Both the position numbers and the translations under genes were made by a program. Of a stretch of DNA of 64,000 bases, positions 2,844-63,959 are shown piece by piece. Source of the stretch: a virus; UHGV virus genome UHGV-1366919. One strand, 5' to 3'. The notes beneath the pieces were generated by a model. That model was given only the letters and a program-made list of their open reading frames with translations. It was not told the DNA's origin and did no database searches. Each line of letters starts with the position of its first letter. The stretch's first letter is position 1.

Positions 2844-3530
2844 ATGACATATATTGAAATCATTTGTCGAAAACATGGTTCATTCTGGCAAAAACCTAAT
2901 ACTCATTTAATCGGCAAAGGATGTTTTGAATGTTATGGCTCTAAAATGCTAACACAGGAAGAGTTTATCAATCGCTGTATTGAAAAACATAATGGATTTT
3001 ATATCTATGACAAAACAATTTATACGGGTTGTAATTATACAATTACTATTACTTGTCCTGTCCATGGTGATTTTCAACAAAAAGCAGGAGCCCATTTATA
3101 CGGGCAAGGATGCAGTCAATGTGCTCATTTAATTTCTACTCAAGAGCTTGAACTTAGAGAATTTCTCGGAACAATTTATGAAAATGAAATGATTTTTAAT
3201 TCAAGGGCTTTTATTAAGCCTAAAGAATTAGACATTTATCTTCCTGATATAAAAACTGCCTTTGAATATAATGGGAATTATTGGCATGCTCTATATGAAG
3301 AAAATGATCCAGGGTACCATGACTATAAAAGGCAACTTTGTAAAAATGCCGGAATTACTTTAATTGAAGTATGGGGAAATGACTGGACTGAATTTAATAA
3401 AGAAACCAAAAATGAAATTAAAGATTTTTTCTCAGCAAAAAGGTTGAAAGAGTATAAGCATATACAGATAAGCAATGCCGAAGAAGCAAACATTAGAAGA
3501 ATTTATCAAGAAATCAAACATTGCCCATAA
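2844..3530 (+). CDS. homing-endonuclease-like protein, 3' part: two zinc-finger repeat units + Vsr/DUF559-like PD-(D/E)XK nuclease domain; frame is open upstream to ~2754 (gene disrupted by the IS)
   Basis: Repeats KHG.F...THL.GKGC.EC and KHNGFYIYDKTIYTG...CPVHGDFQQ...GQGCSQC. C-terminal ELDIYLPDIKTAFEYNGNYWH matches the DUF559/Vsr-like nuclease motif. Confidence 0.5.
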   Translation: MTYIEIICRKHGSFWQKPNTHLIGKGCFECYGSKMLTQEEFINRCIEKHNGFYIYDKTIYTGCNYTITITCPVHGDFQQKAGAHLYGQGCSQCAHLISTQELELREFLGTIYENEMIFNSRAFIKPKELDIYLPDIKTAFEYNGNYWHALYEENDPGYHDYKRQLCKNAGITLIEVWGNDWTEFNKETKNEIKDFFSAKRLKEYKHIQISNAEEANIRRIYQEIKHCP

Positions 3531-3643: not shown

Positions 3644-4906
3644 ATGATAGTTCAAAGAACAGAGATACATATAATCAAAGAATCCAATCCTGTCTACAAT
3701 TGGATTTTAGAGGAATGTCTTCGTTCAAGAAATCTTTATAACAGAGTATTATATGTTTACCGTCAAGCCTTTACAGGGAAACACGATAATATTCCTGAGT
3801 TTAAAGATATAATAAATCATGATAAATTCATCGCTTCTTTTGCTCTTGTAAACAGACTAAATGAAATAAAAGATATTGATTTTTGCTCAATGATGAAGAA
3901 AAATGGAGCACAACAAATTGTGTTTCAAGTGGATAGAACAATGAAATCTTGGTTTGCTGCTCTTAAATCTTATAAGAGAGACTCGTCTAAATTCAGAGGT
4001 AGACCAAGAATTCCGTCTTATAAAAAGAAAGATGAGTTAAATTGTTTAACTTACACTACTGCTGACGCTAAATTACAAAAAGATGGAACTATTAACCTTA
4101 GACGCGATATTAAACTGCCGATTCATACAAATCTCTCCTCTTTCCAACAAGTTCGTTTAATACCTAAAACTGGTTATATTCAAGTAGAAATCATTTACAA
4201 TAAAGATATAAATGAAAATCACTTGGATCAAGCCAGAGCTATAGGAATTGATTTAGGATTGAATAATTTAATGGCTATAACTTCAAACATTGGTAATATA
4301 TCTAACCTTGTTAATGGTAGACCATTAAAATCTATAAATCAATACTATAACAAACATAAGGCTCATTTAATGAGTTTATTATTAAAAGGTAAATTGAAGA
4401 GTTCTAAGAGACTTAGACGATTGGAAATGAAGAGAATGATGAAAATCAAGGATTATCTTCATAAAACTTCAAGGAGAATCGTTGAACTAATGGAACAGAA
4501 TAATATAGGAACTTGTTTTATTGGTTATAATAAAGGATGGAAACAAGAAATTAATATTAGGAAGAAAAATAATCAAAACTTTGTTTCTATTCCTTATTCA
4601 TTACTAATAAACATGTTAAAATATAAGATAGAGGAAAAAGGAGGTCATTTAATTGAATTAAACGAGGCTTATACATCTAAATGCTCTTTCTTGGATAATG
4701 AAGAAGTCTGTAAACATGAAACTTATAAAGGAAAGAGAATAAAAAGAGGTTTATACCTGAGCAATAAAAAGAAAGTAATTAATGCTGATATAAATGGGTC
4801 ATTGAATATTCTTAAACGAGGAATGAAATTTGATTTTGATTTTAAAGATTGTTTCTTTAGACCAGAAAAAATAGATATACAAAAGAAACTCTTGAATTTT
4901 GCTTAA
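3644..4906 (+). CDS. tnpB: solo TnpB (IS1341-like OrfB)
   Basis: 420 aa. GIDLGLNNLMAIT (RuvC-I), zinc finger CSFLDNEEVC, NADINGSLNI (RuvC-III). Paralogous to 62559-63896. Confidence 0.8.
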   Translation: MIVQRTEIHIIKESNPVYNWILEECLRSRNLYNRVLYVYRQAFTGKHDNIPEFKDIINHDKFIASFALVNRLNEIKDIDFCSMMKKNGAQQIVFQVDRTMKSWFAALKSYKRDSSKFRGRPRIPSYKKKDELNCLTYTTADAKLQKDGTINLRRDIKLPIHTNLSSFQQVRLIPKTGYIQVEIIYNKDINENHLDQARAIGIDLGLNNLMAITSNIGNISNLVNGRPLKSINQYYNKHKAHLMSLLLKGKLKSSKRLRRLEMKRMMKIKDYLHKTSRRIVELMEQNNIGTCFIGYNKGWKQEINIRKKNNQNFVSIPYSLLINMLKYKIEEKGGHLIELNEAYTSKCSFLDNEEVCKHETYKGKRIKRGLYLSNKKKVINADINGSLNILKRGMKFDFDFKDCFFRPEKIDIQKKLLNFA

Positions 4907-5210: not shown

Positions 5211-6545
5211 ATGCAAAAAGATGTTACGCAAGGCAAAAGTTATTGCCTCACTGTTTATTCTGTACCATGTAAAGTAACAGCAATTGGTGAAAATAATATA
5301 GAATATACTCTTTTAAATGTTTCTGAAACTGGACAATATTTGTTTATTGCCCCTACTTGGAAAGTTAATATTTCTCAAGATGATGCATCTATTGTTGAAA
5401 CTTTTAATTTAGCCGGAACCGGTAAAGTTGGCGGATCTGGTTCCGGCTCTGACCCGACTTATGGATTATTAAAAATTATATTTGTCGATGCTCTTCCTCC
5501 TATTTCTGAAGCAAAAGAAAATACTTTATATTTTGTTCCCAAAGATGGTGCAGCCCCTGATAATTATGATGAATATATTTTTGACCCTGTTAATCAACAA
5601 TTTGAATTAGTAGGTCAAAGTGCTATCGATACATCTGATTTTGCAAAACTTTCCTCTACAAATATCTTTTTAGCTCCTAATACTTTTAATGAAATTATTA
5701 CTTTTAAAAAGGGCTTAAAAGTTTCAGAATCTGGACCTGTAATTACATCAAATGATACCACTCTTAATTTGCCAAACACTAGTACACCTTTATTAAAAGC
5801 ACAAGGTCTAATTTTAACTGGAGTAAGTACATTTAATAATGAAATAAGAGTTCCTACTATAGCTGGTTTAACTTCAACACCAATTAAGGTAACTAGTGCT
5901 GTTAATTTTAATAAACCGATTAAATTTAATGATACCATACGGGTTGAAACCGGGAAGATTGACCCCGGCAAGTTCGGCAACACCTGGACGTTCGGCTCCC
6001 TGATTGAGACGCCGACGACTGCCGACAACAACAATCACCGGCTAGCCTGCAAAACGACCATCGATAACGCAGCCTATATCCTCTACCACGAACGGGTGAT
6101 TAACGGGGTATGGACGAAAGCCTCGATTATCCTCGCCTGTCAGTTTGATTTTACCTGGCACAACGACGCTTCCATTCTTGTCAAAACCCCCACCAAAGCG
6201 GAACAGGCTGCCAATAAGAATTATGTAGATACCCAAATAAGTACAATTTCTCAGTTTGATTCTTCAAGTGATCAAACTATTTCCGGTACTTGGAAATTTT
6301 CTAAGCCTTTAAAAATTACAGAAGCACAACTTACAGATGAAGCTGTAAGTAAAGGTTATGTTGATGAGACAATTCAACAAAATCTCAATACAACATTAGA
6401 AGGTGTTATTAAGTTTGTTTCCATGACAAAAGCTGAATATAAAGCATTAGAAACAAAATCACCGTCAACCATTTATCATTTGACTGATGTTTCTATGTGG
6501 GCTATTGGTGACCAAGAGATTGTTACATCGAACATGCCTGCATAA
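5211..6545 (+). CDS. tail fiber-like protein
   Basis: 444 aa. Ser/Thr/Asn-rich with repeated xGYVDxxI / NKNYVDTQI motifs typical of phage fibers. Contains a ~300-bp GC-rich patch (see findings). Confidence 0.5.
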   Translation: MQKDVTQGKSYCLTVYSVPCKVTAIGENNIEYTLLNVSETGQYLFIAPTWKVNISQDDASIVETFNLAGTGKVGGSGSGSDPTYGLLKIIFVDALPPISEAKENTLYFVPKDGAAPDNYDEYIFDPVNQQFELVGQSAIDTSDFAKLSSTNIFLAPNTFNEIITFKKGLKVSESGPVITSNDTTLNLPNTSTPLLKAQGLILTGVSTFNNEIRVPTIAGLTSTPIKVTSAVNFNKPIKFNDTIRVETGKIDPGKFGNTWTFGSLIETPTTADNNNHRLACKTTIDNAAYILYHERVINGVWTKASIILACQFDFTWHNDASILVKTPTKAEQAANKNYVDTQISTISQFDSSSDQTISGTWKFSKPLKITEAQLTDEAVSKGYVDETIQQNLNTTLEGVIKFVSMTKAEYKALETKSPSTIYHLTDVSMWAIGDQEIVTSNMPA

Positions 6546-8851: not shown

Positions 8852-11725
8852 ATGTTGAATGGATTAGAAGATGTATTAAAGGCAGATACAGCAAAGAGTA
8901 CAAAAATTGATTGTACACAGTCAGTAGAAGAATATATTAATAAAAGTGACTGGCGTATATTTGCTAATGCTAATACAGGATATAGTAATGCTGGATTAGT
9001 AAATGGACTAGCTGGTAAAGTAATAGCCAATTATTGGTTAGATAAAGTTTATTCAAAAAAAGAGGGTGATGCACATAGAAATGGCGATTATCACATTCAT
9101 GATTTAGATTGTTTAAGTGGTTATTGTTGTGGTCATGATTTACAACGATTATTAAATGAGGGTTTTAATGGTGTAGTGGGAAGAGTAGGTTCAAAAGCAC
9201 CAAAACATTTTAGAGAAGCTTTATATCAAATGGCTAATTTCATTGGTATTTTACAAGCTGAATGGGGTGGTGCTCAAGCGTTTAGTTCTTTTGATACATA
9301 TCTTGCACCTTATGTTTTTTTTGATATGTATTATAGTGGTTTAACTTATAAAGATATTAAGAAAGCCATCTTAAATTTCATTTATAATTTAAATGTGCCA
9401 TCACGCTGGGGACAATCTCCGTTTTCAAATATTACAATTGACTGGATTGTCCCTAATGATATGTCTGCCCAATATCCTCTAAGAAATGATAAGAATTATT
9501 TTAAAACAATTTATGAAGATTTATCAGATGAAGAAAAAACAAAATTTAGAACGACAGTTATTGAAGAACTTAAAAAACGTTTAGAGAATATAGAAAATTC
9601 TATAGATAGTCTATTTGATAAAATAACATATAAGTTATTTCAAAAAGAAATGAATCTTATTAATAAAGCTTTTTATGAATGTTTAAACGAGGGCGATATT
9701 AATGGATTACCTTTTACATTCCCAATTCCTACAGTTAATATTACAGAAAATTTTGATTGGGATGGAGAAAATACTGATCTTCTTTTTGAAAATGCTGCAA
9801 AATATGGATCTTCTTATTTCCAAAATTTTATTGGTTCGCAATATAAACGAGATGAAAATGGTAATTTAGTTCCTGATCCAAATGCTTATAGTCCAAATGA
9901 TGTACGAAGTATGTGTCCACTAACTGGTGATACGGAAGTATTAACACTTAGTAACAGAGGTATTAGTAAGACACAAATAGTACATTTAAATGAAAATAGC
10001 CATAAAGTATTTTCTAATGGAAATTGGTTTAATTTTAAACGTATCGAAATTAAGCCACAAAAAGTATATGAAATTAAATTATCAAATGGTACTTCTATAA
10101 AAATGGGAGAACATCATTTACAACCAATATATGGTAGTACTAAAGAATGTAAAGATCTTAAAGTTGGTGATTTAATACCATTTAATAGTCAAATAATTAA
10201 TTGGGACAAAGCTGTTGGTGATTATCATCTTGGTTATGCAATCGGTGCTTATTATGGTGATGGCTCAACCGATGGTAATACTGTAATATATTCTCTTTCT
10301 GTTGATGAAAAAGATAATATAACTGAAGAAAAATTACGAAAATTTTGGACTTCTAATGGGTATCATGTTAAAACAATAAATGTTAACAATGTTCGTTCAA
10401 TAGTGGTTACTGGAAATGCTTTTAATTTAATTGGACGATTTTGTAGTGGTAATAATGCTCTTACTAAAGGTATTCACAGTTTAGCATTTAGTTTATCAGT
10501 AGATGCTCGTCAGGGAATTATAGATGGATATATTGCTACAGATGGTAATAAAGATCGCAGGCGAATTAGTACTTCATCCCAAGCAATGGTTAATGATTTA
10601 TTAACTTTGTTTACTTTACAGGGTAAAAAAGCTTTATTATCATCTATAGATAATCGTGAAAATCGTCTAGGAAGTAATCCAAATTATATTGTTTCTTATC
10701 CTGAAAAAGACAATTATAGTGATTTTTATCAAACTATTGATGGTATAATATATTTTATAATTAAAGAAATAAAAGAAATTCCGCAACAAAAACTTTATTG
10801 TATTGAGGTTGATAATGAAGATCATACATTTGTATTAGGTAACGGGATGATTACGCATAATTGTCGTCTTCAATTAGATAAGCGAGAATTACGAAAACGT
10901 GGAGGAGGCTTATTTGGTTCAGATGCACAAACTGGCAGCATAGGCGTAGTAACAATTAATATGGCCCGCCTTGGCTATCTTTACAAAGGTAACTTTCCGC
11001 TTCTTAAGAAAAAACTTATTCATTTAATGGAATTGGCTAAATCGACTTTAGAAAAAAAGCGTTCTTTTATTAATGAATTATATCTAAGAGGATTATACCC
11101 ATATACAAGACGATATCTTAAAGGCTTTAATACATTTTTTAGTACAATCGGCGTTAATGGAATGAATGAAATGGTTCGTAATTTTTCAAATGACGAATAT
11201 GATATTACTTCATATGAAGGCCAGAAAATGTGTATAGAACTATTAGATTTAATTCGCTCTAAAATGTCTGATTATCAAGAAGAAACTGGAAATCTTTATA
11301 ACCTTGAAGCTACCCCGGCAGAAGGAACAACTTATCGATTTGCCAAAGAGGATATTAAACGTTTTCCGGACATTATTCATGCTGGTACTGAAAAAGAACC
11401 TTACTATACAAATAGCTCTCAGCTCCCGGTAAATTTTACGGATGATCCCTTTGAAGCACTTGATAAGCAAGATGAGCTTCAATGCAAATATACTGGTGGT
11501 ACAGTAATCCATTTATATATGACAGAAAGACTTTCTAATGCAACAGCTTGTAAAAATCTTATAAAAAAGGTACTTACAAATTATCGCTTGCCATATATAT
11601 CTATAACTCCAACATATTCTACATGTCCAATACATGGTTATATTCCTGGAAATCATGAATTTTGTCCAAAATGTGACCAAATAATTTTAGAAGAATATGC
11701 TAAAGAAATTGATTTTAACGAATAA
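8852..11725 (+). CDS. nrdD: anaerobic ribonucleoside-triphosphate reductase (class III RNR) NrdD, intein-containing
   Basis: GDYHIHDLD... NrdD-type N-terminus and C-terminal zinc-ribbon TCPIHGY...FCPKC. 957 aa, or 641 aa without the intein. Confidence 0.85.
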   Translation: MLNGLEDVLKADTAKSTKIDCTQSVEEYINKSDWRIFANANTGYSNAGLVNGLAGKVIANYWLDKVYSKKEGDAHRNGDYHIHDLDCLSGYCCGHDLQRLLNEGFNGVVGRVGSKAPKHFREALYQMANFIGILQAEWGGAQAFSSFDTYLAPYVFFDMYYSGLTYKDIKKAILNFIYNLNVPSRWGQSPFSNITIDWIVPNDMSAQYPLRNDKNYFKTIYEDLSDEEKTKFRTTVIEELKKRLENIENSIDSLFDKITYKLFQKEMNLINKAFYECLNEGDINGLPFTFPIPTVNITENFDWDGENTDLLFENAAKYGSSYFQNFIGSQYKRDENGNLVPDPNAYSPNDVRSMCPLTGDTEVLTLSNRGISKTQIVHLNENSHKVFSNGNWFNFKRIEIKPQKVYEIKLSNGTSIKMGEHHLQPIYGSTKECKDLKVGDLIPFNSQIINWDKAVGDYHLGYAIGAYYGDGSTDGNTVIYSLSVDEKDNITEEKLRKFWTSNGYHVKTINVNNVRSIVVTGNAFNLIGRFCSGNNALTKGIHSLAFSLSVDARQGIIDGYIATDGNKDRRRISTSSQAMVNDLLTLFTLQGKKALLSSIDNRENRLGSNPNYIVSYPEKDNYSDFYQTIDGIIYFIIKEIKEIPQQKLYCIEVDNEDHTFVLGNGMITHNCRLQLDKRELRKRGGGLFGSDAQTGSIGVVTINMARLGYLYKGNFPLLKKKLIHLMELAKSTLEKKRSFINELYLRGLYPYTRRYLKGFNTFFSTIGVNGMNEMVRNFSNDEYDITSYEGQKMCIELLDLIRSKMSDYQEETGNLYNLEATPAEGTTYRFAKEDIKRFPDIIHAGTEKEPYYTNSSQLPVNFTDDPFEALDKQDELQCKYTGGTVIHLYMTERLSNATACKNLIKKVLTNYRLPYISITPTYSTCPIHGYIPGNHEFCPKCDQIILEEYAKEIDFNE
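9914..10861 (+). mobile_element. intein (316 aa) with LAGLIDADG homing-endonuclease domain inside NrdD
   Basis: N-terminal splice junction M|CPLTGDTEVL and C-terminal GMITHN|C. LAGLIDADG motifs LGYAIGAYYGDGS and IDGYIATDGN. Excised extein junction reads RSM-CRLQL. Confidence 0.75.
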
Positions 11726-30140: not shown

Positions 30141-30764
30141 TTAACTGTCTTTTGCATATTTCGTACAATACTCGTTAATTTCTCGTTTAAGTTTCGCGAT
30201 TTGTTTCAGATTGTTTTTAAAATCAACCACCTTTACTTCATTCCAATACTCGTCGCTTCTGAACGGAATGGAACTACCTTCGGATTTGAATAAAATTACA
30301 TCATCGTCATATATAAGCATATAACATTTTTCATCCTTAATACTATTCCAACATATTCCGTTCCAATTCGGATGATGACTTATTCTTACACTATCCATAA
30401 TACTTTTATCCAAGCTGCTAATAAATTTTTCAACCTCAGGCCAAAAATTAACGGTTAAAAGAAGCTTTTTTTCGATAAAAATATAATATTTTGTATTATA
30501 ATTAAGAATATTCTGAATATATCCAAGACATTTGTCGTTTTCATTTATTATAATCCATTGTTCATCCGGTTTAATATTCCTGAACATTGTTTCATCAAAA
30601 TAAAGACTTGTCCGTCCGCAAATATTATTCAGATAAAAACGCAAATATTTTTCTTTAATTTTATCGAGTAAAATACCATTTACTTTGATATGTTTTCTTT
30701 CTCCTTTATTCAAAAAGTTATATAATTTGAAAGCATTTTCAGAAGAAGCACTAAGTTCAATCAT
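30141..30764 (-). CDS. hypothetical protein (member of ~200-aa tandem paralog array)
   Basis: 207 aa; first of three similarly sized consecutive minus-strand genes. Confidence 0.4.
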   Translation of the reverse strand: MIELSASSENAFKLYNFLNKGERKHIKVNGILLDKIKEKYLRFYLNNICGRTSLYFDETMFRNIKPDEQWIIINENDKCLGYIQNILNYNTKYYIFIEKKLLLTVNFWPEVEKFISSLDKSIMDSVRISHHPNWNGICWNSIKDEKCYMLIYDDDVILFKSEGSSIPFRSDEYWNEVKVVDFKNNLKQIAKLKREINEYCTKYAKDS

Positions 30765-30803
30765 ACTTTTATTATATCTTAATCCTCAATGTTTTGCGGT
30801 GCT

Positions 30804-37586: not shown

Positions 37587-37962
37587 GCTGACCTTTCTTA
37601 TATTCCCAATTCTTCATCTTAAGAAGATAATAAACCCTCCCAACTGCAATTCCAGAAAGAACGGACATTTGCTTAACTGTACGATCCGGAGAATAAAACT
37701 TTCGAAGTTGCTCAATCTCAGGTTCCCAATCTCGAGTTTGCCGCCCTGAAGTAGCCCGGCCGCCAATTTTACCAACATAAACAATATCGCAAAGATATTT
37801 GCCAAGTTTGAAAAGATTGTTAACAGGCTTAATATTGTCCTCAATATTCAAATCCGAAAAATAATCTTCCTTTGCTTTATTGAGAACATCTTCAATTGTT
37901 CCAAATTTTACATTAACAATCTGAAAGTTTAATGTTTCAGTGTTGATAATTTTTATTTGCAT
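37570..37962 (-). CDS. hypothetical protein
   Basis: 130 aa; CACCT motif at 37997-38007 upstream. Confidence 0.35.
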   Translation of the reverse strand: MQIKIINTETLNFQIVNVKFGTIEDVLNKAKEDYFSDLNIEDNIKPVNNLFKLGKYLCDIVYVGKIGGRATSGRQTRDWEPEIEQLRKFYSPDRTVKQMSVLSGIAVGRVYYLLKMKNWEYKKGQRGKRK

Positions 37963-38009
37963 GATACTTTTATTATATTTCTTACCTTATTATTTGAAGG
38001 TGTTAGAAC

Positions 38010-47168: not shown

Positions 47169-48200
47169 TTATTGTGAAACCAATTCACAATACATCATTC
47201 TCTTACCAATCATTTTGGTAATCGTATCTCCTATACATTCCATTACTTCAATCTTGGAGGTATTATGCCTATAGGAAAACTCATGGATATACCTCTTCAA
47301 ATGCTTAGGAGACATGTAATGGTAAACTCCATAATAACCTCTTTTCAGTAGAGACCAGAAGCTTTCAATGGAATTAGTATGAACCTCTCCATTGACGTAT
47401 TGTTTCCCCTTATGGTTGACAAACTCATGGACAAATCCGACAAGTCCTTTATAGGATTTGAACTCATCCGTAAACACATTGGAATTCCTCTCTACATGTT
47501 TTCCGATGAATCCTTGTAAATTGTAAGCGGATGTATCGTCGATATGTTTGACGATTACTTTTCCGTTTCTCTGTTTGGCTCCGATCACAATCAATTTACC
47601 TACTGAACCTCTTCCCTTGTTCAGCTTCTTGGAAAAGTGTTTGTTGGATTCCTTTCCTCCAATGAAGGTTTCATCTACTTCCACAATACCGTCCAACTTC
47701 TCCTTTTTATCTTTCATCCAAACTTCTCTGATCCTGTGACAGAGGAACCAGGCAGTCTTCTGAGTGATTCCAAGTTCTTTTGAAATCTGGATGGAGGAAA
47801 TGCCTTTTCTGGAAGTCGCCAACAGATACATACACATCAACCATTTGTGAAGAGGCAATTTGGATTCCTCTAAAATTGTACCAAATCTGACGCTGAAGAA
47901 CTTTCTACAATCTTTACAGCGATAAGGCATCGGTTTTTGATCCTTACATTCGGTGATATAATTGGAACCACAATGAGGACAACGGACATGACCATTCCAT
48001 CTTTTTAACTCAAAATATTTCCGGGCGGATTCCTCATTAGGAAATTTGGAGAAGAAGTCATAGAGAGAAGTGTATTTGAGCTTAGTTTTTCCCATATCAT
48101 CGCTTGGTTGATAGGGAAATTTTGTCGTGTTTTGATTGGTTCGTACGCGTTTATTTTCAGCGTATTGAGAATTATTTTTTATTACAATTTTCTTACCCAT
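47169..48200 (-). CDS. IS1595-family (ISXO2-like) DDE transposase
   Basis: N-terminal zinc-ribbon (CPHCGS...CKDCRKF), HTH, DDE core (DETFIGGK...). GC-richer than the host sequence. IS ends not resolved. Confidence 0.7.
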   Translation of the reverse strand: MGKKIVIKNNSQYAENKRVRTNQNTTKFPYQPSDDMGKTKLKYTSLYDFFSKFPNEESARKYFELKRWNGHVRCPHCGSNYITECKDQKPMPYRCKDCRKFFSVRFGTILEESKLPLHKWLMCMYLLATSRKGISSIQISKELGITQKTAWFLCHRIREVWMKDKKEKLDGIVEVDETFIGGKESNKHFSKKLNKGRGSVGKLIVIGAKQRNGKVIVKHIDDTSAYNLQGFIGKHVERNSNVFTDEFKSYKGLVGFVHEFVNHKGKQYVNGEVHTNSIESFWSLLKRGYYGVYHYMSPKHLKRYIHEFSYRHNTSKIEVMECIGDTITKMIGKRMMYCELVSQ

Positions 48201-49605: not shown

Positions 49606-49707
49606 TCTGTTGGATGGTTAGTCAAGTATGTAGGTCCCATATTTTTGCCAAAGATAAATCTTTGTTACTGGAAACAACCACGTAGAGGTATATTACCGTA
49701 TGTTTCC

Positions 49708-49780
49708 TATTGCCATCGAGATTCGAACTCGAGATAGCCGGTAGAAAGCCGGCTGTGATAAACCACTTCACTATGGCAAC
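49708..49780 (-). tRNA. tRNA-Glu (anticodon TTC), U at position 37
   Basis: Manual cloverleaf: acceptor GTTGCCA/TGGCAAT, D-arm GTGA-AGTGGTTTA-TCAC, anticodon stem GCCGG/CCGGC with loop CTTTCTA, T-arm TCGAG-TTCGAAT-CTCGA. No encoded CCA. Confidence 0.6.
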
Positions 49781-49928
49781 ATATCAAGACTCAGCGGATT
49801 TGTTTTAAAAGAACAATGCTTAATGATTGCTGTTTGAGTCTTTCAAAGAATTTAAATCTTCTTATTAGAGAATTGTTGGAGTATTGGGCATTTACAATCC
49901 AATTTTTATAGCAACTGGCCTACCAGTC

Positions 49929-50147
49929 TCAGGATTTCTTACGAACAAGAAACTTACGCGATTCTCGGAGAGTTTTAAACTCATTCATCCTTTGCCGATT
50001 AAAATTGAGACGACGAAGACCCTCATCATACTGCTCCTCAAACGATTTTTCACTCTTAATTTCTTCCAGATTCTTAATCGTTTTTACGTCAAGCATCGTT
50101 CCAATTCGCATAATATTTCCTTTCGTATTTTCGTTATTACTTAACAA
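49929..50147 (-). CDS. hypothetical protein
   Basis: 72 aa; CACCT motif upstream at 50186-50195. Chosen over the overlapping plus-strand ORF 49884-50144. Confidence 0.3.
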   Translation of the reverse strand: MLSNNENTKGNIMRIGTMLDVKTIKNLEEIKSEKSFEEQYDEGLRRLNFNRQRMNEFKTLRESRKFLVRKKS

Positions 50148-50293
50148 CTTGTTACATTTTTATTATATTTTTTACCTTTATTTTTAAAGGTGATTTGAAA
50201 TATTGGAGCTGACAAGTAAGATTTGCACTTACAACTTCCTACTGGAATGCAGGACGACTTACTGCTTAAATCGATTGTCGCTTTAAAAAAACT

Positions 50294-50380
50294 TGGTACT
50301 ACCGGCGGGACTTGCACCCGCACGCTCTTACAAGCAACAAATTTTAAGTTTGCAATGTCTTCTAGTTCCATCACGGTAGC
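50294..50380 (-). tRNA. tRNA-Leu (anticodon TAA), type II with long variable arm, encoded CCA, non-canonical D/T loops
   Basis: Acceptor GCTACCG/CGGTAGT. Anticodon stem GCAAA/TTTGT with loop CTTAAAA. Variable arm TGCTTGTAAGAGCGT. T-arm GCGGG-TGCAAGT-CCCGC (G55). D-loop lacks GG. 3' ACCA. Confidence 0.5.
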
Positions 50381-50665
50381 TTATGCGCTAGACACATTAA
50401 TTATTAAGAATTACTCTTAATACCTGGAATCGAACCAAGAATATCCATTGTATAGGTTATTGCTGTATGTGTCTTACAATGACTAGACTCATTTTTTATT
50501 ATATACACCAATAATATTTTAATTTGCTGTACGAGTCTATAAAATCTTTATAACTAACTAAGCACCAAAGGTTTGACTCGAACAAGCAACTAACAACTAA
50601 CAACTAACGAGTAACGAGTTAACAGCTTGCCCCTCTACTATTGAGGTACTTTGGTATTCAATTAA

Positions 50666-50717
50666 TTATCTGATTTGAGGAAATCTTTATCTTTATTAAT
50701 TTCCTCAAATCAGATAA
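50666..50717. repeat. perfect 19-bp inverted repeat (hairpin) ttatctgatttgaggaaat / atttcctcaaatcagataa
   Basis: Exact reverse-complement arms separated by a 14-nt loop, in a ~1.2-kb intergenic region. Confidence 0.7.
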
Positions 50718-51014
50718 CTAATCAAAACTAGTTATTTGATTTATTACTTTGCATCAAAACAATTTTAATTCAATTATCCGTCCTTCACAGGATTGATTTT
50801 TTTTTTTGAATATTTCATTCGAAAAATTAGTTTCGCTCTTGGCTACTTATGCTCATCGCCGCGTAAAGGCTTTTTCGATGATGAACTGGTTGCAGCGGGC
50901 GGACATGCTCCGCTTAAGAGATGCTTATGAGACATCTGAGGCTACTAATACCTCTTTACTTTCCTGCTGCGATTTTCTGAGCAGTTTAAAATCTTGCTCA
51001 GGATTCTGAATTAT

Positions 51015-51134
51015 TTACTTACCTTTCTGAACCTTAATTACAGGAGGCTGATTAACAGTTTGTTGCTGTTGCTGAGAGCAAGAAGCTGTCAAACAAATTA
51101 CAGAAGCGGTAAGAAGAATTGCAATGTTTTTCAT
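51015..51134 (-). CDS. small lipoprotein-like ORF (39 aa)
   Basis: MKNIAILLTASVICLTASCSQQQQQTVNQPPVIKVQKGK. CACCT motif GAGCACCTAC at 51166-51175 about 35 nt upstream of the ATG. Confidence 0.3.
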   Translation of the reverse strand: MKNIAILLTASVICLTASCSQQQQQTVNQPPVIKVQKGK

Positions 51135-51177
51135 GATTTTATAATATTTTTTATCTTATTTTTTGTAGGTGCTCAAA

Positions 51178-51432
51178 TCAAATATATGAGTTTTGATATT
51201 TAATTGAATTGCGGAATTTTTTATCAGGATATTCTTTAATAAATCCTTCAGCAATTTTATCATCCCATATAGGTCTTTGACTAAATTTAGCACGAATATT
51301 GGGTTGATCCTTGGCCTTATATTCCCGATACCATTTTATATTGTTTCGAGTTTTATAAATCCAAAATGCTTTTCTGCTGTCAAGTTTATAACAAAACTTG
51401 TCCGGTATATTTTTTCTATATGATCTGCTCAT
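51178..51432 (-). CDS. hypothetical protein
   Basis: 84 aa. Confidence 0.3.
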   Translation of the reverse strand: MSRSYRKNIPDKFCYKLDSRKAFWIYKTRNNIKWYREYKAKDQPNIRAKFSQRPIWDDKIAEGFIKEYPDKKFRNSIKYQNSYI

Positions 51433-51450
51433 AACTTTCTAGGTACAAAC

Positions 51451-52578
51451 CTAGAAAGCATTACGATAATTATTGTTCATATTAAAGATGTCTGCAATAT
51501 TATGCTCAATATCAGTTGCTTGAACGCACTCAAGCAAAATATTTTCGTCCTTTATTTTATATACTAAACGATCAATTCCATTTTCAATGAGATCATTCGG
51601 ACCAAATACGATATGTTTCCATTCATAGTCATCATTAGAACCTTTTAACCGTTTAGCAATTCGAAGCGGATTAGTAGTAAACAAATTAATCGGTTCAGGA
51701 CTAATATCGGTTTTAGTTATATATTCAAACTTATTGCCTGCCTGGGGAATAACTTTAATTCTATAATTGCAAGGTCTAAATTCAATGTTAATATCATTGA
51801 TTATCTTATCTAGAGTTGTTTCGTAAAGATTACATTCTTCAGTAAGAGCCTGGAGAACATCAAAACTAAAGTTAAGAATAGATTTTGAAGTTTTTATAAA
51901 TTGAGAAATATTAGTATCAATTTGTACTTTCAAATTATCTTTAAGATATTCTTGAATTACTTCGGAAGAAAGTGAATCAAATTTAAAATGATAAAAGATT
52001 CTGCCAGGTCGGGAAAGGAAAAATTGATTAATCTTATAAAGATTATTACAAGAAAAAAGATAAAGATTCTTATTTTCATTTATCCCGTCCAAAAGACCGA
52101 GCAATCCAAATTGGTTTTCTTTTCCTGAATCCATTTCGCAATCATCTGTATTTTCATAGCTGAATTTATCAAATTCATCAAAAATACAAACAACTTTTTC
52201 GTCAATCTTTTTAATAAAATCAGAAAACTTATTTAGGTTAATTTTCTGATTAACAAGGATAACAGGAATATTATCCTCAATAGCTCTTTCAATACAAAGC
52301 TTAATCAAAAGGCTTTTTCCAGTTCCTTTCAGTCCGGACAATAGCACGCCGAGATTTTTATCCCTAGATTCATAAGTCTTAAAAATCCTTTGAACCTTAT
52401 TATTCAAATCTCTATAAATCTTCCTATTGTTGAAAATAAAATTATGTTCTTTTAAGAACATTTGTCCCTGAGGACCTGCATTTATTGTATAAATTTTAGC
52501 CGGGAGATTCTTTAAAATAGTAATACAGTTTTCAGAAAGAACATCAACTGTATCATTGTTAATGATATAATTAGACAT
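51451..52578 (-). CDS. AAA+ family ATPase
   Basis: Walker A GLKGTGKS, Walker B VVCIFDEFD. Confidence 0.55.
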   Translation of the reverse strand: MSNYIINNDTVDVLSENCITILKNLPAKIYTINAGPQGQMFLKEHNFIFNNRKIYRDLNNKVQRIFKTYESRDKNLGVLLSGLKGTGKSLLIKLCIERAIEDNIPVILVNQKINLNKFSDFIKKIDEKVVCIFDEFDKFSYENTDDCEMDSGKENQFGLLGLLDGINENKNLYLFSCNNLYKINQFFLSRPGRIFYHFKFDSLSSEVIQEYLKDNLKVQIDTNISQFIKTSKSILNFSFDVLQALTEECNLYETTLDKIINDINIEFRPCNYRIKVIPQAGNKFEYITKTDISPEPINLFTTNPLRIAKRLKGSNDDYEWKHIVFGPNDLIENGIDRLVYKIKDENILLECVQATDIEHNIADIFNMNNNYRNAF

Positions 52579-52996
52579 TATATTTTAGATAATAAGAATA
52601 ATAAAAAGATTTTTGGAATAAACAACCGCCTATTGCAGTTGAATGAGATACAAGCTCATAACCTTTTTTAATTAGAAAAGAAATAACTTCATTTAATATT
52701 TCCTCAAATATTTCTTTATCATGCTCTCTTTCATTTCGAAGAGTAAAGAATAAAAATTTAGGCCGTATAACATATTCCGGTAAAGAATAATCCTCAATAA
52801 TAAAATAACCGGTTTTAGGCAATTCTTTAGTATAGCGATCTATTTTCAGATCAATTTGATCAAGAATATATTCGAGACAATTAGACTTTTTAATTCTATA
52901 TTTCTCAATATCAAGAGCTACTTTAAATCGTTTCTTTTCTTCTTTAAGCCTTTGTTTAAGAAAAGTTTTATATTCATTTTTGTTAAACCAGCTCAT
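52571..52996 (-). CDS. hypothetical protein
   Basis: 141 aa; overlaps the ATPase start. Confidence 0.35.
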   Translation of the reverse strand: MSWFNKNEYKTFLKQRLKEEKKRFKVALDIEKYRIKKSNCLEYILDQIDLKIDRYTKELPKTGYFIIEDYSLPEYVIRPKFLFFTLRNEREHDKEIFEEILNEVISFLIKKGYELVSHSTAIGGCLFQKSFYYSYYLKYNV

Positions 52997-53300
52997 TGAT
53001 TGATGCTTCTTTATAAAAGTTAGAAAGGATAAGAGTTATAATGAAAGGTTCTCCTTTACTCAATTCAATGTCATATTCAATGCCATTATTATCTTCTTCC
53101 CAAATAATATGAAGCTCATCGTTAAACACAACTGTTTCAATATTTTTAATGAGCAGCATATTTTTTACCTTTTGAGTAAGGTCAAACATTGATCCGTCAA
53201 ATTCAATGATTTTTCCTCCCATAAGGGAATCTTTAATAATATCTTCATCCCCGTGAGATACATGAAGATAAGATGGAATTGAAACTGCAAAATTACTCAT
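52983..53300 (-). CDS. hypothetical protein
   Basis: 105 aa; CACCT motif at 53331-53340 about 40 nt upstream. Confidence 0.35.
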   Translation of the reverse strand: MSNFAVSIPSYLHVSHGDEDIIKDSLMGGKIIEFDGSMFDLTQKVKNMLLIKNIETVVFNDELHIIWEEDNNGIEYDIELSKGEPFIITLILSNFYKEASINELV

Positions 53301-53330
53301 AAAAATATTATGAGATAAATCTTATAACTC

Positions 53331-53340
53331 AAAGGTGTTT
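53331..53340 (-). promoter_or_regulatory. representative CACCT-core promoter-like motif (minus strand TTAAACACCTTTGAG) ~40 nt upstream of the ATG at 53300
   Basis: One of 15 or more similar sites. The others: 34313-34324, 35471-35480, 36889-36899, 37997-38007, 44661-44670, 45101-45110, 47163-47172, 50186-50195, 51166-51175, 55768-55777, 57537-57547, 59135-59144; plus-strand versions at 8115-8126 and 14694-14704. Confidence 0.45.
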
Positions 53341-53350
53341 AAGAAATAAA

Positions 53351-53425
53351 TGGAAGAGTTGCTGGGGTACGATCCCAGAATAGGAGAGTCAAAGTCTCCG
53401 GTGTTGCCAATTACACTACAACTCT
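53351..53425 (-). tRNA. tRNA-Gln (anticodon TTG), CCA encoded, T-loop ATCGTAC (54/58 swapped)
   Basis: Acceptor AGAGTTG/CAACTCT perfect. D-arm GTGT-AATTGGCA-ACAC. Anticodon stem GGAGA/TCTCC with loop CTTTGAC. T-stem CTGGG/CCCAG. 3' TCCA. Confidence 0.6.
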
Positions 53426-53431
53426 ATTTGT

Positions 53432-53506
53432 TGGAGGCTTCAATCGGTTATGCTCCGATGTTACCGGGTTACAAATCCGGGGTTTTACTGATTAAACTAT
53501 AAAGCC
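53432..53506 (-). tRNA. tRNA-like gene, probable tRNA-Thr (anticodon TGT) with atypical D-loop (no GG), T-loop AGCATAA and A31-C39 mismatch
   Basis: Acceptor GGCTTTA/TGAAGCC, D-stem GTTT/AAAC, anticodon loop TTTGTAA, T-stem ATCGG/CCGAT, encoded CCA. Packed 6 nt and 2 nt from the neighbouring tRNAs. Confidence 0.4.
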
Positions 53507-53508
53507 TT

Positions 53509-53582
53509 TGGTACTTTGTATCGAAATCGAATCGATGACTTCTGAGTGGAAATCAGATGTTTTACCACTAAACTAACAAAGC
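53509..53582 (-). tRNA. tRNA-Gly (anticodon TCC), CCA encoded
   Basis: All stems perfect: acceptor GCTTTGT/ACAAAGT, D GTTT/AAAC, anticodon TCTGA/TCAGA with loop TTTCCAC, T ATCGA-TTCGATT-TCGAT. Confidence 0.7.
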
Positions 53583-53606
53583 ATTAACAAGACACATTTT
53601 CTTTAT

Positions 53607-53662
53607 ACTCTACCAATTGAGCTAGCATCCTCTTCTCAAAGATGCCTAGGATTCGAACCCAG
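53607..53662 (-). other. tRNA-like halves in permuted order: 3' half (T-arm CTGGG-TTCGAAT-CCTAG + acceptor strand) directly followed by 5' half (acceptor GGATGCT + canonical D-arm GCTC-AATTGGTA-GAGT)
   Basis: The two acceptor strands are complementary (CTAGGCATC/GATGCTAG) and joined by an 11-nt loop. No complete cloverleaf in normal order can be drawn. Confidence 0.35.
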
Positions 53663-53794
53663 AACCGTTCATTTTTCATATGACTAAGATAATTGTTGTT
53701 AATGTCTTTTTTATGAGAAGACTTAGAGATATTAGTTTCATCTTTCCTGATTACTTATGTTCATTACCACGTAAAGGTTTCTCCATTAATGAAC

Positions 53795-53866
53795 TCGGGT
53801 ACCAGAGGGTCGAACTCTGTTAATCATGCTCCCAAAGCATGCCCATAACCGTCCTGGCCATACCCG
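53795..53866 (-). tRNA. tRNA-Pro (anticodon TGG)
   Basis: Acceptor CGGGTAT/GTACCCG. Anticodon stem CATGC/GCATG with loop TTTGGGA (G37). T-arm CAGAG-TTCGACC-CTCTG. No CCA encoded. Confidence 0.6.
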
Positions 53867-54374
53867 TTATACCGGTATTGTCGTCAACTTTCTCAGAAGT
53901 ACCGGACTCCTATAGCTTCAGCATACGATCAGCTAAACGATTATTTCTTAACCCATCGTTCTAACGGTAATCAGTTCCAGCTCGCTCTCTAACCGCTAAA
54001 CTGATAAGTCGCTAGTTAGGTAATTCTTTGTGACTAGCAAAGAAACACTATGTTCGATCTACATATTTACTCATCACTATCGAGTCAACGGACTAATAGG
54101 CTAAGAGTGGGATCTTCGTATTTTTAAAAATGTATTAATAATACGATCACTTTTAATAGTATGATCTCTATATACTTTTTCCTGCTTGAGTAAAATCTAA
54201 GATTTTACTCAAATAATATTCACTTGTTTGTGGATTTTTATTTACAATATATGTTCCTAATGGACAATTAGTAATAATATCTAATGATCCATTTTCTACT
54301 ACTCATAGATTATTATTATTTCGAATGAATTGAGACATTATGTTATTTTGTTTTTGTTTTTGTTTTTTAAAATT

Positions 54375-54452
54375 TGGTAAGCCTGGTCGGATTCGAACCG
54401 ACGATCTATCGATTATGAGTCGATTGCTTTAAAACCTCTAAGCTACAAGCCT
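54375..54452 (-). tRNA. tRNA-Met/Ile2 (anticodon CAT), CCA encoded; abuts the HNH gene stop
   Basis: Acceptor AGGCTTG/CAGGCTT (two G-U pairs). D GCTT/AAGC. Anticodon ATCGA/TCGAT with loop CTCATAA. T GTCGG-TTCGAAT-CCGAC. 3' ACCA. Confidence 0.65.
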
Positions 54453-59333: not shown

Positions 59334-60434
59334 TCATTGACGTTCGGCTTTTAGGTTTTGGGGACTATATACTCCCAAATGGAGAATGTTAATAGCTGCA
59401 TTAATATCTGCATCCATCTCAGCTCCACAAGTCTTACAGTGATATACTTCACCTTGTCGACTTGACTTATTAACAGTATTACAAACGTGGCATCGTTGAG
59501 ATGTATAAGCAGGAGGAACTTTAATGAGTAAGAAACCTTCTTCTTCACTAAATCTACCTAACTTATTCATTACTTTAATGTAACTCCACCTTTGTAACTT
59601 GTTGTTAAACTTTTTGGAAAATTTTTTACCTCGTTTTACGTTCTTAAGATTCTCAACTATAATCTGCCCACAATCTTTATGCTCATTATAAAACTTTTTA
59701 ACGGTTCGGTTGATTGCTTGATCTCTTTCAATTAATGCACGTTTGAAAGCTTTAGACCGTTGTTTCTTACGAGAAATCTTTTCATAGATTCCTTCTAATT
59801 CTTTGCCGTAAACCTTTCCGTCACTACATGCGAGTAGTTTCTTGTAACCGCAATCGACACCAATCGGTCTACCATCATGCTTCGCTACTTCTTCTTTCTC
59901 CCAGTAAAGACATAACATTCCATTATCTCGAAGCATCATTGTTCGATTATTAAACTCGAATCCTTGATCTTTCAAACAGTTACAAGCATAATGAAACTTA
60001 ATAGGAATATTGAATGTAAGATAACGTGTTTTTGTTTTAAGATAAGGAGAAAAAATACGAATAAAATAATCAAACTCACCTTCCTCACATTTTTCAATAT
60101 CCCATAAATGGTAGTTAATATTAACTGAATGAGATTTGATTATAGGTTTAGTAAATGGTTTGTGACATTTTTTACCTTTATATTTTGCTAGTACCGAACG
60201 ATAAGTTTGTACTGCTTCACGATAACAATCAACTCTCCAGTTAGCATTTACTATATCATTAAGAATTGGTAACTCTTTACTCGAAAGATTAGTTTTAAGA
60301 GGCAGTTTCTTTTCGTAAATGAGGTCGATATATTTCTGTAGTAACCATTGATAATCAGATACTATCTTCTTATACAATACCTTTTTACCGGTATTGGCAA
60401 ACTTAATTGTATGTGAAGAAGTACGTAATATCAT
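59334..60434 (-). CDS. tnpB: TnpB (IS605 OrfB family)
   Basis: GVDCGYKKLLACS (RuvC-I), zinc finger CHVCN...CKTCG, DADINAAINI (RuvC-III). Confidence 0.8.
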   Translation of the reverse strand: MILRTSSHTIKFANTGKKVLYKKIVSDYQWLLQKYIDLIYEKKLPLKTNLSSKELPILNDIVNANWRVDCYREAVQTYRSVLAKYKGKKCHKPFTKPIIKSHSVNINYHLWDIEKCEEGEFDYFIRIFSPYLKTKTRYLTFNIPIKFHYACNCLKDQGFEFNNRTMMLRDNGMLCLYWEKEEVAKHDGRPIGVDCGYKKLLACSDGKVYGKELEGIYEKISRKKQRSKAFKRALIERDQAINRTVKKFYNEHKDCGQIIVENLKNVKRGKKFSKKFNNKLQRWSYIKVMNKLGRFSEEEGFLLIKVPPAYTSQRCHVCNTVNKSSRQGEVYHCKTCGAEMDADINAAINILHLGVYSPQNLKAERQ

Positions 60435-62504: not shown

Positions 62505-63959
62505 AGGCTCTGTCCTACCACAGTGTTGATTTTTAAGGAATCTTTCATGCTGTAAGACTTAATGTGTTGATGTTACCATCAAGACAATGGGTGAAGCCCC
62601 ACCCTCTACACCTTGGTCGGAGACCGACATCGGGTGCTTCTTTTCTATATCGATTTTAATTGGATTAAACATTGATTTGTGAGGTGAGAATGTTTTGCCG
62701 AGACCTCTACGCAGTATGTTAGCGGCACCATTGATGTCGGCGTTTAACATGCATCCAACAGAGCTTACAAACAACCCACGTTTCTTTCTCTTACCCATAT
62801 ATTCATCATAGTGACAAATATCCTCGTCGTCAAGGAATGAGCATTTGGAGGTGTGAGACTCATTGTGAGTTTCCACATTGATACCGGCTTCACTTGCTTT
62901 GTAAGACAACATCCAAATGAGTTGAGAATGTGGAATGCTCACAAAGTTCTGATTGTTTCGTTTACCAATGTTTACTTCCTGCTTCCATCCATCATTATGA
63001 CCGATAAAGCAGTTTCCGATTTTGTTTTCTACCATCAAATCAACCACTGAACGACTAGCCTTGTGCATATAATCTTTTGTTTTGTTATTGCGCTTTCTAG
63101 TAAGTCTCCTGAGTTTCTTTGATGTATTCATATCTCTCTCAGCCAACTTAGATACAATTTCAGCGTAAGTCTTGTTATAATATTGGTTGATGCTCTTTAA
63201 TGGTCTGCCATTAACAAGGTGGGATATAGACCCCTCGTTTGAAGTTACAGCCATTAAGTTATCAATACCAATATCTATCCCTACTGCTTTGTTGTAGTCT
63301 AAGTCAACCGGAGAAATCTTTGTTTTGTAGAAGATTTGTATCTCTATACATCCTTGCTTTGGCACAAGACGAAGCTCTTGCAAGGAGGTGAGCTTCGTTT
63401 TAATTGAAAGCTTAAAGTCCTTGCGAATGTTTATCGTTCCGTCTTTCTGGATTTTCGCGTCATTATAAGAGAAGGCAACGGAAAATAACTTATCGCCATT
63501 TGCTTCTTTCTTATACCTGGGCATCCTTGGTTTCCCAGTGAATTTCTGTGGATTCTTCTTGTATGAGTTAAGAGACCTGAACCAAGTAGAGAATGATTCG
63601 GCACACTTCTTCACAGTTTGTGCTGCTTCGTTATCCTTTAACAACGATCTAAAATCTTTGTCGTTTAACTTCCTCATTCTGGTGATTAGGTCAAACACAG
63701 AGATAAATTTCTCTTTCCTGATTATGTCTGTGTATTCAGGAATGTTCTCGTGTTTGCCACTAAACGCTTGGCGGAGAATGTATAACGTTCTATTGTAAAG
63801 AGATGTATTCAGAGAGCATTCTTGCACAGCCCAACCATAGAAGGATGTCCCTTCTTTTATCTGGTGCGTTTCAACTCTGATTGCCTCTTCTTGCATTCGC
63901 TGTTGTATATATTATACCATAGGTTTATCAGAAATCAACACTGTGGTAGGACAGAGCCT
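62505..63959. mobile_element. TnpB-carrying element bounded by perfect 28-bp terminal inverted repeats
   Basis: aggctctgtcctaccacagtgttgattt at 62505-62532 and its exact reverse complement at 63932-63959, each ~30 bp from the tnpB stop/start. Element is GC-richer than the host sequence. Confidence 0.65.
62559..63896 (-). CDS. tnpB: TnpB (IS1341-like), paralog of 3644-4906
   Basis: 445 aa. GIDIGIDNLMAVT, zinc finger CSFLDDEDIC, NADINGAANI. N-terminal region collinear with the 3644-4906 protein. Confidence 0.8.
   Translation of the reverse strand: MQEEAIRVETHQIKEGTSFYGWAVQECSLNTSLYNRTLYILRQAFSGKHENIPEYTDIIRKEKFISVFDLITRMRKLNDKDFRSLLKDNEAAQTVKKCAESFSTWFRSLNSYKKNPQKFTGKPRMPRYKKEANGDKLFSVAFSYNDAKIQKDGTINIRKDFKLSIKTKLTSLQELRLVPKQGCIEIQIFYKTKISPVDLDYNKAVGIDIGIDNLMAVTSNEGSISHLVNGRPLKSINQYYNKTYAEIVSKLAERDMNTSKKLRRLTRKRNNKTKDYMHKASRSVVDLMVENKIGNCFIGHNDGWKQEVNIGKRNNQNFVSIPHSQLIWMLSYKASEAGINVETHNESHTSKCSFLDDEDICHYDEYMGKRKKRGLFVSSVGCMLNADINGAANILRRGLGKTFSPHKSMFNPIKIDIEKKHPMSVSDQGVEGGASPIVLMVTSTH

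Follow-up and report, generated by a model that had tools for sequence, protein, structure and literature searches.

A stretch of 64,000 nucleotides (nt) from the virus genome UHGV-1366919, referred to here as the window, contains a patch of GC-rich sequence at positions 5936-6232, inside a gene whose origin and composition we analysed. The host gene (5211-6545, plus strand) was identified from its open reading frame (ORF), translation, Pfam content and synteny, and encodes a modular fibre-like virion protein of 444 amino acids (aa) in an AT-rich T4-like phage. The Pfam domain Phage_tail_C (PF24243) was detected at aa 401-423 with a score of 29.4 bits versus a cut-off of 23.7 (E=4.8e-7), and on the basis of this domain 'fibre gene' is a reasonable name for the ORF. 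The patch lies in frame within the gene and covers approximately aa 244-340.

The sequence-only reading of this DNA had singled out a GC-rich patch in an AT-rich fibre gene, and the measured composition bore this out. The patch has 51.9% GC, versus 31.8% for the whole window and 31.8% for the same ORF minus the patch, and its edges are abrupt: in 30-nt steps, GC climbs from 23% to 60% at ~5940 and drops from 57% to 27% at ~6212. All 297-nt segments of the window averaged 31.8% GC with a standard deviation of 5.6, the patch standing ~3.6 standard deviations above this mean, and the most GC-rich 297-nt stretch of the 64 kb was found at 5916-6212 (52.2%). Other, moderate GC peaks correspond to a tRNA cluster at 49.7-54.5 kb and, where the window begins, to the 3′ end of the major capsid gene. 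GC content at the first, second and third codon positions (GC1, GC2 and GC3) was 0.48, 0.44 and 0.70 in the patch and 0.42, 0.39 and 0.15 in the remainder of the gene, with a GC3 of 0.22 in the other window genes. The GC excess is therefore located at third codon positions, so that the anomaly is one of foreign codon usage and not of amino-acid content. The patch had also been described as rich in AAC and AAT codons. AAC is indeed preferred there (AAC:AAT of 6:1, versus 2:22 in the rest of the gene), but asparagine itself is not enriched, making up 7.8% of the codons in the patch and 6.8% in the rest of the gene (Fisher p=0.82). The same preference extends to all two-fold pyrimidine-ending codons, with an NNC:NNT ratio of 19:12 in the patch versus 8:90 elsewhere in the gene (p=5e-9).

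Nucleotide matches to the patch were found in a second lineage of uncultured human-gut phages, with genomes of ~83 kb, contigs of 82-90 kb and a locus GC content of 0.50-0.54 (hereafter the GC-lineage). These phages encode TerL, ParB, a TET-associated glycosyltransferase (TAGT) and PAPS-reductase/APS-kinase, and their fibre gene specifies a protein of 640-800 aa with BppL_N and Phage_tail_C domains; the fibre of one of the compared loci, L029, also matches a tail-fibre PHROG. The presence of Phage_tail_C in both fibres, of BppL_N in the GC-lineage fibre and the PHROG match for L029 support their identity as virion fibres, as does the recurrence of the right-junction motif (see below) in giant fibre proteins. 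Twelve GC-lineage loci match the window gene or its relatives only at gene nt 715/730-1020/1026, which corresponds to window positions 5925/5940-6230/6236. Over this module, one allele group shares 81% of its nucleotides with the window and L027-L030 share 89.6%. Comparison of L029 with the window illustrates how strictly the homology is confined, with identities of 37% in 5880-5940, 95% in 5941-6040, 80-85% in the centre, 92% in 6136-6232 and 43% in 6233-6290. In the GC-lineage the composition of the segment (GC 0.50-0.54; GC3 0.63-0.78) equals the local background, and the module's GC3 of 0.70 fits this range, not the 0.15-0.22 of the recipient genes. Beyond the module the two lineages appear unrelated: blastn links them through the module only, their flanks contain different Pfam families (except for the shared Phage_tail_C), and the nearest isolates of gp23 and TerL differ between them, at amino-acid identities of 26-32%.

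The siblings of the window phage carry a different allele at this site. In nt 1-700, the genes of L002 and L003 are 97% identical to the window gene, and in nt 994-1335 they are 94% identical; the interval separating the two gave no nucleotide match. L004 is 89% identical over nt 1-700 only, its 3′ part being different. In all three, the middle segment encodes a homologous domain with 37-41% aa identity to the patch, a GC content of 32-33% and, in L002, 12 additional aa. Because an AT-rich homologous allele occupies the same site in the siblings, the patch is a replacement, neither an insertion nor a conserved GC-rich domain. The in-frame insertion of a mobile element was also considered and was rejected, since a homologous segment was replaced.

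The protein alignment separates three allele classes. The third, represented by L001 (10730-11026) and L032, shows ~69% nucleotide identity both to the window and to the GC-lineage alleles and has a GC3 of 0.42. Along the L001-type branch, 29 GC-to-AT versus 12 AT-to-GC changes were counted, 19 of the former being C-to-T; this allele may be either an older import that is ameliorating toward the AT-rich genome or an import from another donor. In the GC-lineage, the fibre genes of L005 (3597-5555) and L033 (8801-11407) have AT-richer 3′ tails, with 27-45% GC per 60 nt. These tails gave no match among the AT-rich loci compared; they may have arrived by transfer in the reverse direction or have come from other phages.

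Both ends of the replaced segment could be placed precisely (all features are on the plus strand). The left junction, at 5925-5942, comprises the codons F-N-D-T-I-R and was located by alignments, blastn and segment identities; the crossover falls at ~5940/5941, in a CGG codon shared by both lineages, within the motif FNDTxR|VETGKI. This motif is kept at the protein level in both fibres, with synonymous codons that differ upstream of the junction, and the blastn match to L027-L030 begins at gene nt 730 (window 5940). The putatively imported module itself extends over 5941-6232 (aa ~245-340, GC3 0.70). The right crossover lies inside 6213-6232, in the ANKNYVD codons (N-K-N-Y-V-D(T) in the window), which form part of the fibre repeat motif PTKAEQAANKNYVD. 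Beyond it the window is identical to the AT-rich siblings, and the identity of L001 to the window passes from 76% to 100% across this junction. Both lineages have ~20 nt in common here, and the breakpoints are resolved to a few nt on the left and to ~20 nt on the right. When 1.84 billion representatives were searched exhaustively, the PTKAEQAANKNYVD motif was found in giant fibre proteins, in as many as 23 copies per protein, and the whole module was present in only ~12 clusters. Both breakpoints thus coincide with conserved motifs that could support homologous recombination.

At least five independent assemblies (L025, L026, L044, L045 and L046) contain the GC-rich module in a T4-like context, as do protein clusters of 220, 60 and 64 member sequences. 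Some of these alleles are themselves patchworks. L044 carries the window allele except in 5972-6096, where 124 of 125 nt are those of L007 and 25 mismatches separate it from the window. L026 turns to the L006 allele in 6041-6096 (55 of 56 nt), and L045 is L007-type in 5972-6135 (4 mismatches in 164 nt) and L029-type in 6136-6232 (4 in 97). All three alleles hold a GC3 of ~0.70, and 474 of the 1,275 informative site pairs failed the four-gamete test. The nested tracts, 98-99% identical to different GC-lineage alleles, indicate that exchange has been recurrent and recent. Between alleles, the ratio of non-synonymous to synonymous substitution rates (dN/dS) is 0.07-0.21 and the variation is mostly synonymous; the module is under purifying selection.

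An AlphaFold2 model of the module alone reached a predicted local distance difference test (pLDDT) score of 62 overall and 70-86 in the core, with six beta strands followed by a helix starting at ANKNYVD. On this borderline model, the module is predicted to encode a compact beta unit and the start of a helix. The full-length model (pLDDT 43) was unusable, and Foldseek searches with the models against PDB and BFVD returned nothing better than E ~0.2. We infer that the module may be a surface-exposed, receptor-binding unit, the swap of which would alter adsorption specificity.

Taken together, our results suggest, with a probability that we put at about 0.9, that the patch is a fibre module of ~290 nt recombined into an AT-rich T4-like gut phage from the unrelated ~83-kb lineage of ~50-54% GC, or from a close relative of that lineage. 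The sequence-only reading had mentioned, as its second option, an imported segment of a mosaic fibre. Its idea of an import is strongly supported by the segment-limited homology and the donor-type GC3, but the source is an unrelated lineage and not, as it had supposed, a GC-richer relative. In the course of events that we favour, the ~290-nt module would have entered the ~32% GC phage by homologous recombination with a GC-lineage fibre gene. Crossovers in the FNDTxR|VETGKI codons on the left and in the A-N-K-N-Y-V-D codons on the right would have exchanged it for a homologous, natively AT-rich allele. The module has kept the donor codon usage, and for this reason stands out in composition. Once both lineages possessed it, further gene-conversion tracts of 50-160 nt passed between them inside the module and generated the allele patchwork in the T4-like population. 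Such exchange would presumably occur during co-infection of one cell, by both phages or by a phage together with a prophage or intermediary, and the recombination machinery of the phage itself might catalyse it. A shared host of ~50% GC is plausible, because the genomes of T4-type phages usually have a much higher AT content than those of their hosts, T4 and Escherichia coli being an example.

Several points weigh against this interpretation. The exact donor is unsampled, the best overall match being 89.6%, and a third party of similar GC, be it another phage or a prophage, could be the source; the direction of transfer is read from composition alone; and the right-junction motif of L027 and L029 is written in AT-type codons (AATAAGGATTATGTAGAT; ANKDYVD), a hint of some reverse flow. 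The search for a retroelement, described below, covered the 64-kb window of a ~195-kb genome plus the flanks of related loci. As for a receptor-binding role, the models are weak (pLDDT 43 and 62), they have no fold match, and dN/dS is 0.1-0.2, without diversifying selection when averaged over the module. The match of 89.6% and the AT-type codons at the right junction, together with the AT-richer 3′ tails of unplaced origin in the L005 and L033 fibres, would be compatible with a mosaic that is real but was produced by transfer from the T4-like phage, or with one in which both lineages received the module from a third, unsampled genome (for instance a prophage) with ~50% GC. We consider this unlikely. 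A GC3 of 0.63-0.78 is native to the module in the GC-lineage and foreign to the T4-like phages, and tracts of 98-99% identity join the two lineages directly. In the GTDB species representatives, a genome scan matched nothing but the ~22-aa PTKAEQAANKNYVD motif, which is generic, and revealed no donor among bacteria or prophages, and the GenBank phages gave no match to the gene or the patch by blastn (distant mode) or to the module by tblastn. That a chimeric contig joined reads of a GC-rich phage into an AT-rich phage at shared motifs would be conceivable from the occurrence of both lineages in human-gut metagenomes and from the ~20 nt common to them at the right junction. Such an artefact is exceedingly improbable, because L025, L026, L044, L045 and L046, obtained in separate studies with different assemblers, all have the same in-frame architecture, as do clusters of tens to hundreds of members; this effectively excludes an assembly chimera. 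Moreover, the identity of the module to the closest GC-lineage allele is no higher than 89.6%, so that the module is not simply made of GC-lineage reads. Hardly any weight can be given to the view that the domain is intrinsically GC-rich wherever it occurs, through amino-acid selection, codon optimisation or an embedded nucleic-acid signal. GC1 and GC2 are indeed ~0.42-0.49 in all alleles, slightly over the rest of the gene, but the excess is synonymous and is accompanied by 81-99% nucleotide identity to a GC-rich lineage. The homologous alleles of L002, L003 and L004 have 32-33% GC, L001 has a GC3 of 0.42, and no Rfam match was obtained in the patch.

The explanation first proposed from the sequence was a variable or template repeat of a diversity-generating retroelement (DGR), in which a reverse transcriptase (RT) copies a template repeat (TR) with adenine-specific errors and produces AAC-rich hypervariability. 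The patch shares with known DGR targets (Mtd of Bordetella phage BPP-1; Hankyphage; PMC6199706) a localised variable region in a gut-phage fibre-type protein and the presence of AAC codons, six in this case, and it is at aa ~245-332 that close relatives of the protein differ most. The proposal did not withstand closer analysis and is now very improbable. Searches of the 64 kb for a second copy of the patch, exact or with 3 mismatches, returned only the patch itself, and no repeat family from a seed-based search includes it. Word-7 blastn and an adenine-blind ungapped scan, in which a mismatch was forgiven wherever the candidate template has A, found no TR in the 64 kb, the best non-self candidates having 17-23 non-A mismatches per 80 nt. 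No RT (RVT, PF00078-type) was detected in Pfam scans of the 24 window ORFs of at least 230 aa, or in the Pfam annotations precomputed for genes lying within ±3-10 kb around eight related loci of both lineages. Nor are the differences adenine-specific: substitutions starting from A account for 7 of 46 between the GC-lineage consensus and the window and for 10 of 29 between L029 and the window, and all twelve types occur. Variable repeats of DGRs form the C terminus of a C-type-lectin or Ig-like fold, and their differences fall at template adenines, in AAY (asparagine) codons (PMC6199706). By contrast, the patch is internal (aa 245-340 of 444, followed by 104 conserved residues), asparagine is not enriched (p=0.82), synonymous differences dominate (dN/dS 0.07-0.21), and a GC3 of 0.70 is not explicable by adenine mutagenesis. 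The sequence-only reading had said that its idea would be refuted if the genome lacked TR and RT and if homologous fibres also showed the same GC patch as a conserved domain. Half of this applies: neither TR nor RT was found in the 64 kb, but the GC patch is not conserved, the sibling alleles being AT-rich.

The import of a module from the GC-lineage is ordinary tail-fibre mosaicism seen unusually clearly, and the process itself is already well known. Fibre homologies across families, involving P2, Mu, lambda, P1 and T4, are classic. As in T-even and other mosaic fibres, homology to an unrelated phage is segment-limited and sibling alleles differ at the same site, and the protein is assembled from middle modules between a separable attachment part at the N terminus and a tip at the C terminus. 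In their account of gp37 and gp38 of the T4 superfamily, Trojet et al. (2011, PMC3157838) refer to variable segments between conserved motifs as 'easily interchanged', and the module resembles the T-even mosaic fibres and adhesins of that account in being a variable, specificity-type segment between conserved motifs. The host protein itself is neither gp37 nor gp38 and has no sequence or Pfam relation to them. The present case also differs from the T-even ones in that the partners are ~20 genomic GC points apart, so that the import is readable from composition, in that both lineages are uncultured, and in the very fine scale at which exchange is seen (nested tracts of 50-160 nt with 98-99% identity). 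Compositionally anomalous acquired segments and their amelioration are the subject of the Lawrence-Ochman concept. Like such segments, the module shows a donor-type GC3 that persists in the recipient, and the L001-type allele (GC3 0.42) is as expected of an older, ameliorating import. Unlike an acquired gene or island, the module is a sub-genic unit of ~290 nt inside one reading frame, and the L001-type allele may equally have a different donor.

These results remove a false DGR lead and explain the anomaly by a well-known process. The ~20-point GC contrast lets the module, its breakpoints and the later nested tracts be read directly from sequence, and the tracts of 98-99% identity show that DNA is still being exchanged between an uncultured T4-like phage and an unrelated phage of ~83 kb, both from the gut. 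Present-day exchange implies a shared host or a shared intermediary and could help to assign hosts to both lineages. The module is also a candidate specificity determinant. A further suggestion, which we find unlikely, is that the module is a cassette actively traded by the two unrelated gut lineages, its exchange perhaps being stimulated by the mobile DUF723/HNH and TnpB nucleases encoded directly upstream of the fibre gene, which some siblings have and others lack. If this were true, cassette trading would imply co-infection of the same host, a handle for host assignment, and fibre gene conversion driven by nuclease breaks would be a recombination-based counterpart of a diversity-generating system.

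The protein family as a whole is extremely mosaic: BLASTP revealed relatives sharing only aa 1-82, only the last ~70 aa or only the middle. The N-terminal ~82 aa (5211-5456) are 95-100% identical in otherwise different fibre variants of 520-565 aa, and the homologues P0059-P0074 match the query only at residues 1-82; this part is probably a virion-attachment module. At the other end, Phage_tail_C (phage tail tip; 6411-6479) lies in a conserved C-terminal region of ~70 aa common to many variants, and P0075-P0120 align to the host protein only at residues 375/400-444. Other relatives contain an insertion of ~300 aa, which in the 771-aa homologues P0007 and P0011-P0018 sits between the parts matching query aa 395 and aa 375. 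In P0008, P0016, P0022, P0023, P0031 and P0033 (PF05265), a DUF723 homing-endonuclease domain is called as fused to the fibre. Either insertions of homing-endonuclease genes reach the 5′ part of the fibre gene, or the fusions are read-through gene calls. P0124, a close fragment of the host protein, has a 100%-identical NCBI entry from a metagenome-assembled genome labelled Candidatus Gastranaerophilales bacterium HUM_18.

Family and database searches added little to this description. NCBIfam and PHROGs contained no informative family for the ORF or the module, and a PDB sequence search with the host protein gave spurious beta-trefoil matches to the N terminus only. An exact 40-mer of the patch had 0 matches in IMG/VR, and a second, word-indexed search of proteins, for which the module alone was the query, yielded no more than 8 short proteins. 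Two antisense ORFs overlapping this region (5615-6034 and 6042-6236, minus strand) appear only in the mechanical ORF list. They were rejected as genes on the grounds that they overlap a conserved plus-strand frame under purifying selection, and they would owe their existence to the scarcity of stop codons in the GC-rich stretch.

The host gene lies in a T4-like gene order, preceded by a Peptidase_S77 prohead protease, the Gp23 major capsid protein, DUF723/HNH homing endonucleases and TnpB. Downstream of it are five small ORFs, NrdD (with an intein in most genomes), NrdG, ClpP, a gp5-like protein and an amidase. Synteny around the gene was observed in L001, L002, L004 and L044-L046. Related T4-like contigs reach 195-200 kb, and the samples are human-gut metagenomes. 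The Gp23 protein (L001:5293-7203) is 26-31% identical to that of any isolate, the cyanomyoviruses being nearest. Together with the label of the genome containing P0124, this may point to a Melainabacteria host, or the label may reflect a binning error. At positions 74-884 the window matches gp23, the major capsid gene, in its 3′ end, and also the beginning of the homing-endonuclease gene. A tandem duplication of 48 nt, at 75% identity, is present in 1-96, where the GC content is ~48%.

Several mobile elements were noted in the window. An insertion of 1.87 kb (885-2756), defined relative to L001, L004, L025, L044 and others, carries a TnpB ORF (1443-2741; OrfB_IS605 and Cas12f1-like TNB) and splits a DUF723/HNH-type homing-endonuclease gene into ORFs 566-901 and 2844-3530. 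One mobile element is thus inside another. Three more TnpB genes are located at 3644-4906, 59334-60434 (minus strand) and 62559-63896 (minus strand), and an IS1595-type transposase gene at 47169-48200 (minus strand). L001, L004, L036 and L046 have the TnpB gene that directly precedes the fibre gene, and L002, L025, L044 and L045 lack it. A 39-nt inverted repeat (62505-62543 and 63921-63959) flanks the last TnpB gene. NrdD (8852-11725, plus strand) contains an intein (Intein_splicing, aa 393-670). The L001 homologue, of 751 aa, has no intein match, which suggests a presence/absence polymorphism.

A motif of ~40 nt occurs at no fewer than seven sites between ~28260 and 59140, upstream of minus-strand genes (for example 30760-30801, 37961-38002 and 50151-50192). 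Read on the minus strand, it ends in ...GATATAATAAAAGT-ATG, with a conserved CACC further upstream, and its TATAAATA-type box directly upstream of start codons makes it a candidate T4-late-promoter-like element. Finally, 49707-54452 (minus strand) contains 6-8 tRNA genes (Glu, Asn, Gln, Gly, Pro and Met, with two more by Rfam only), and this cluster accounts for the local GC peaks there.

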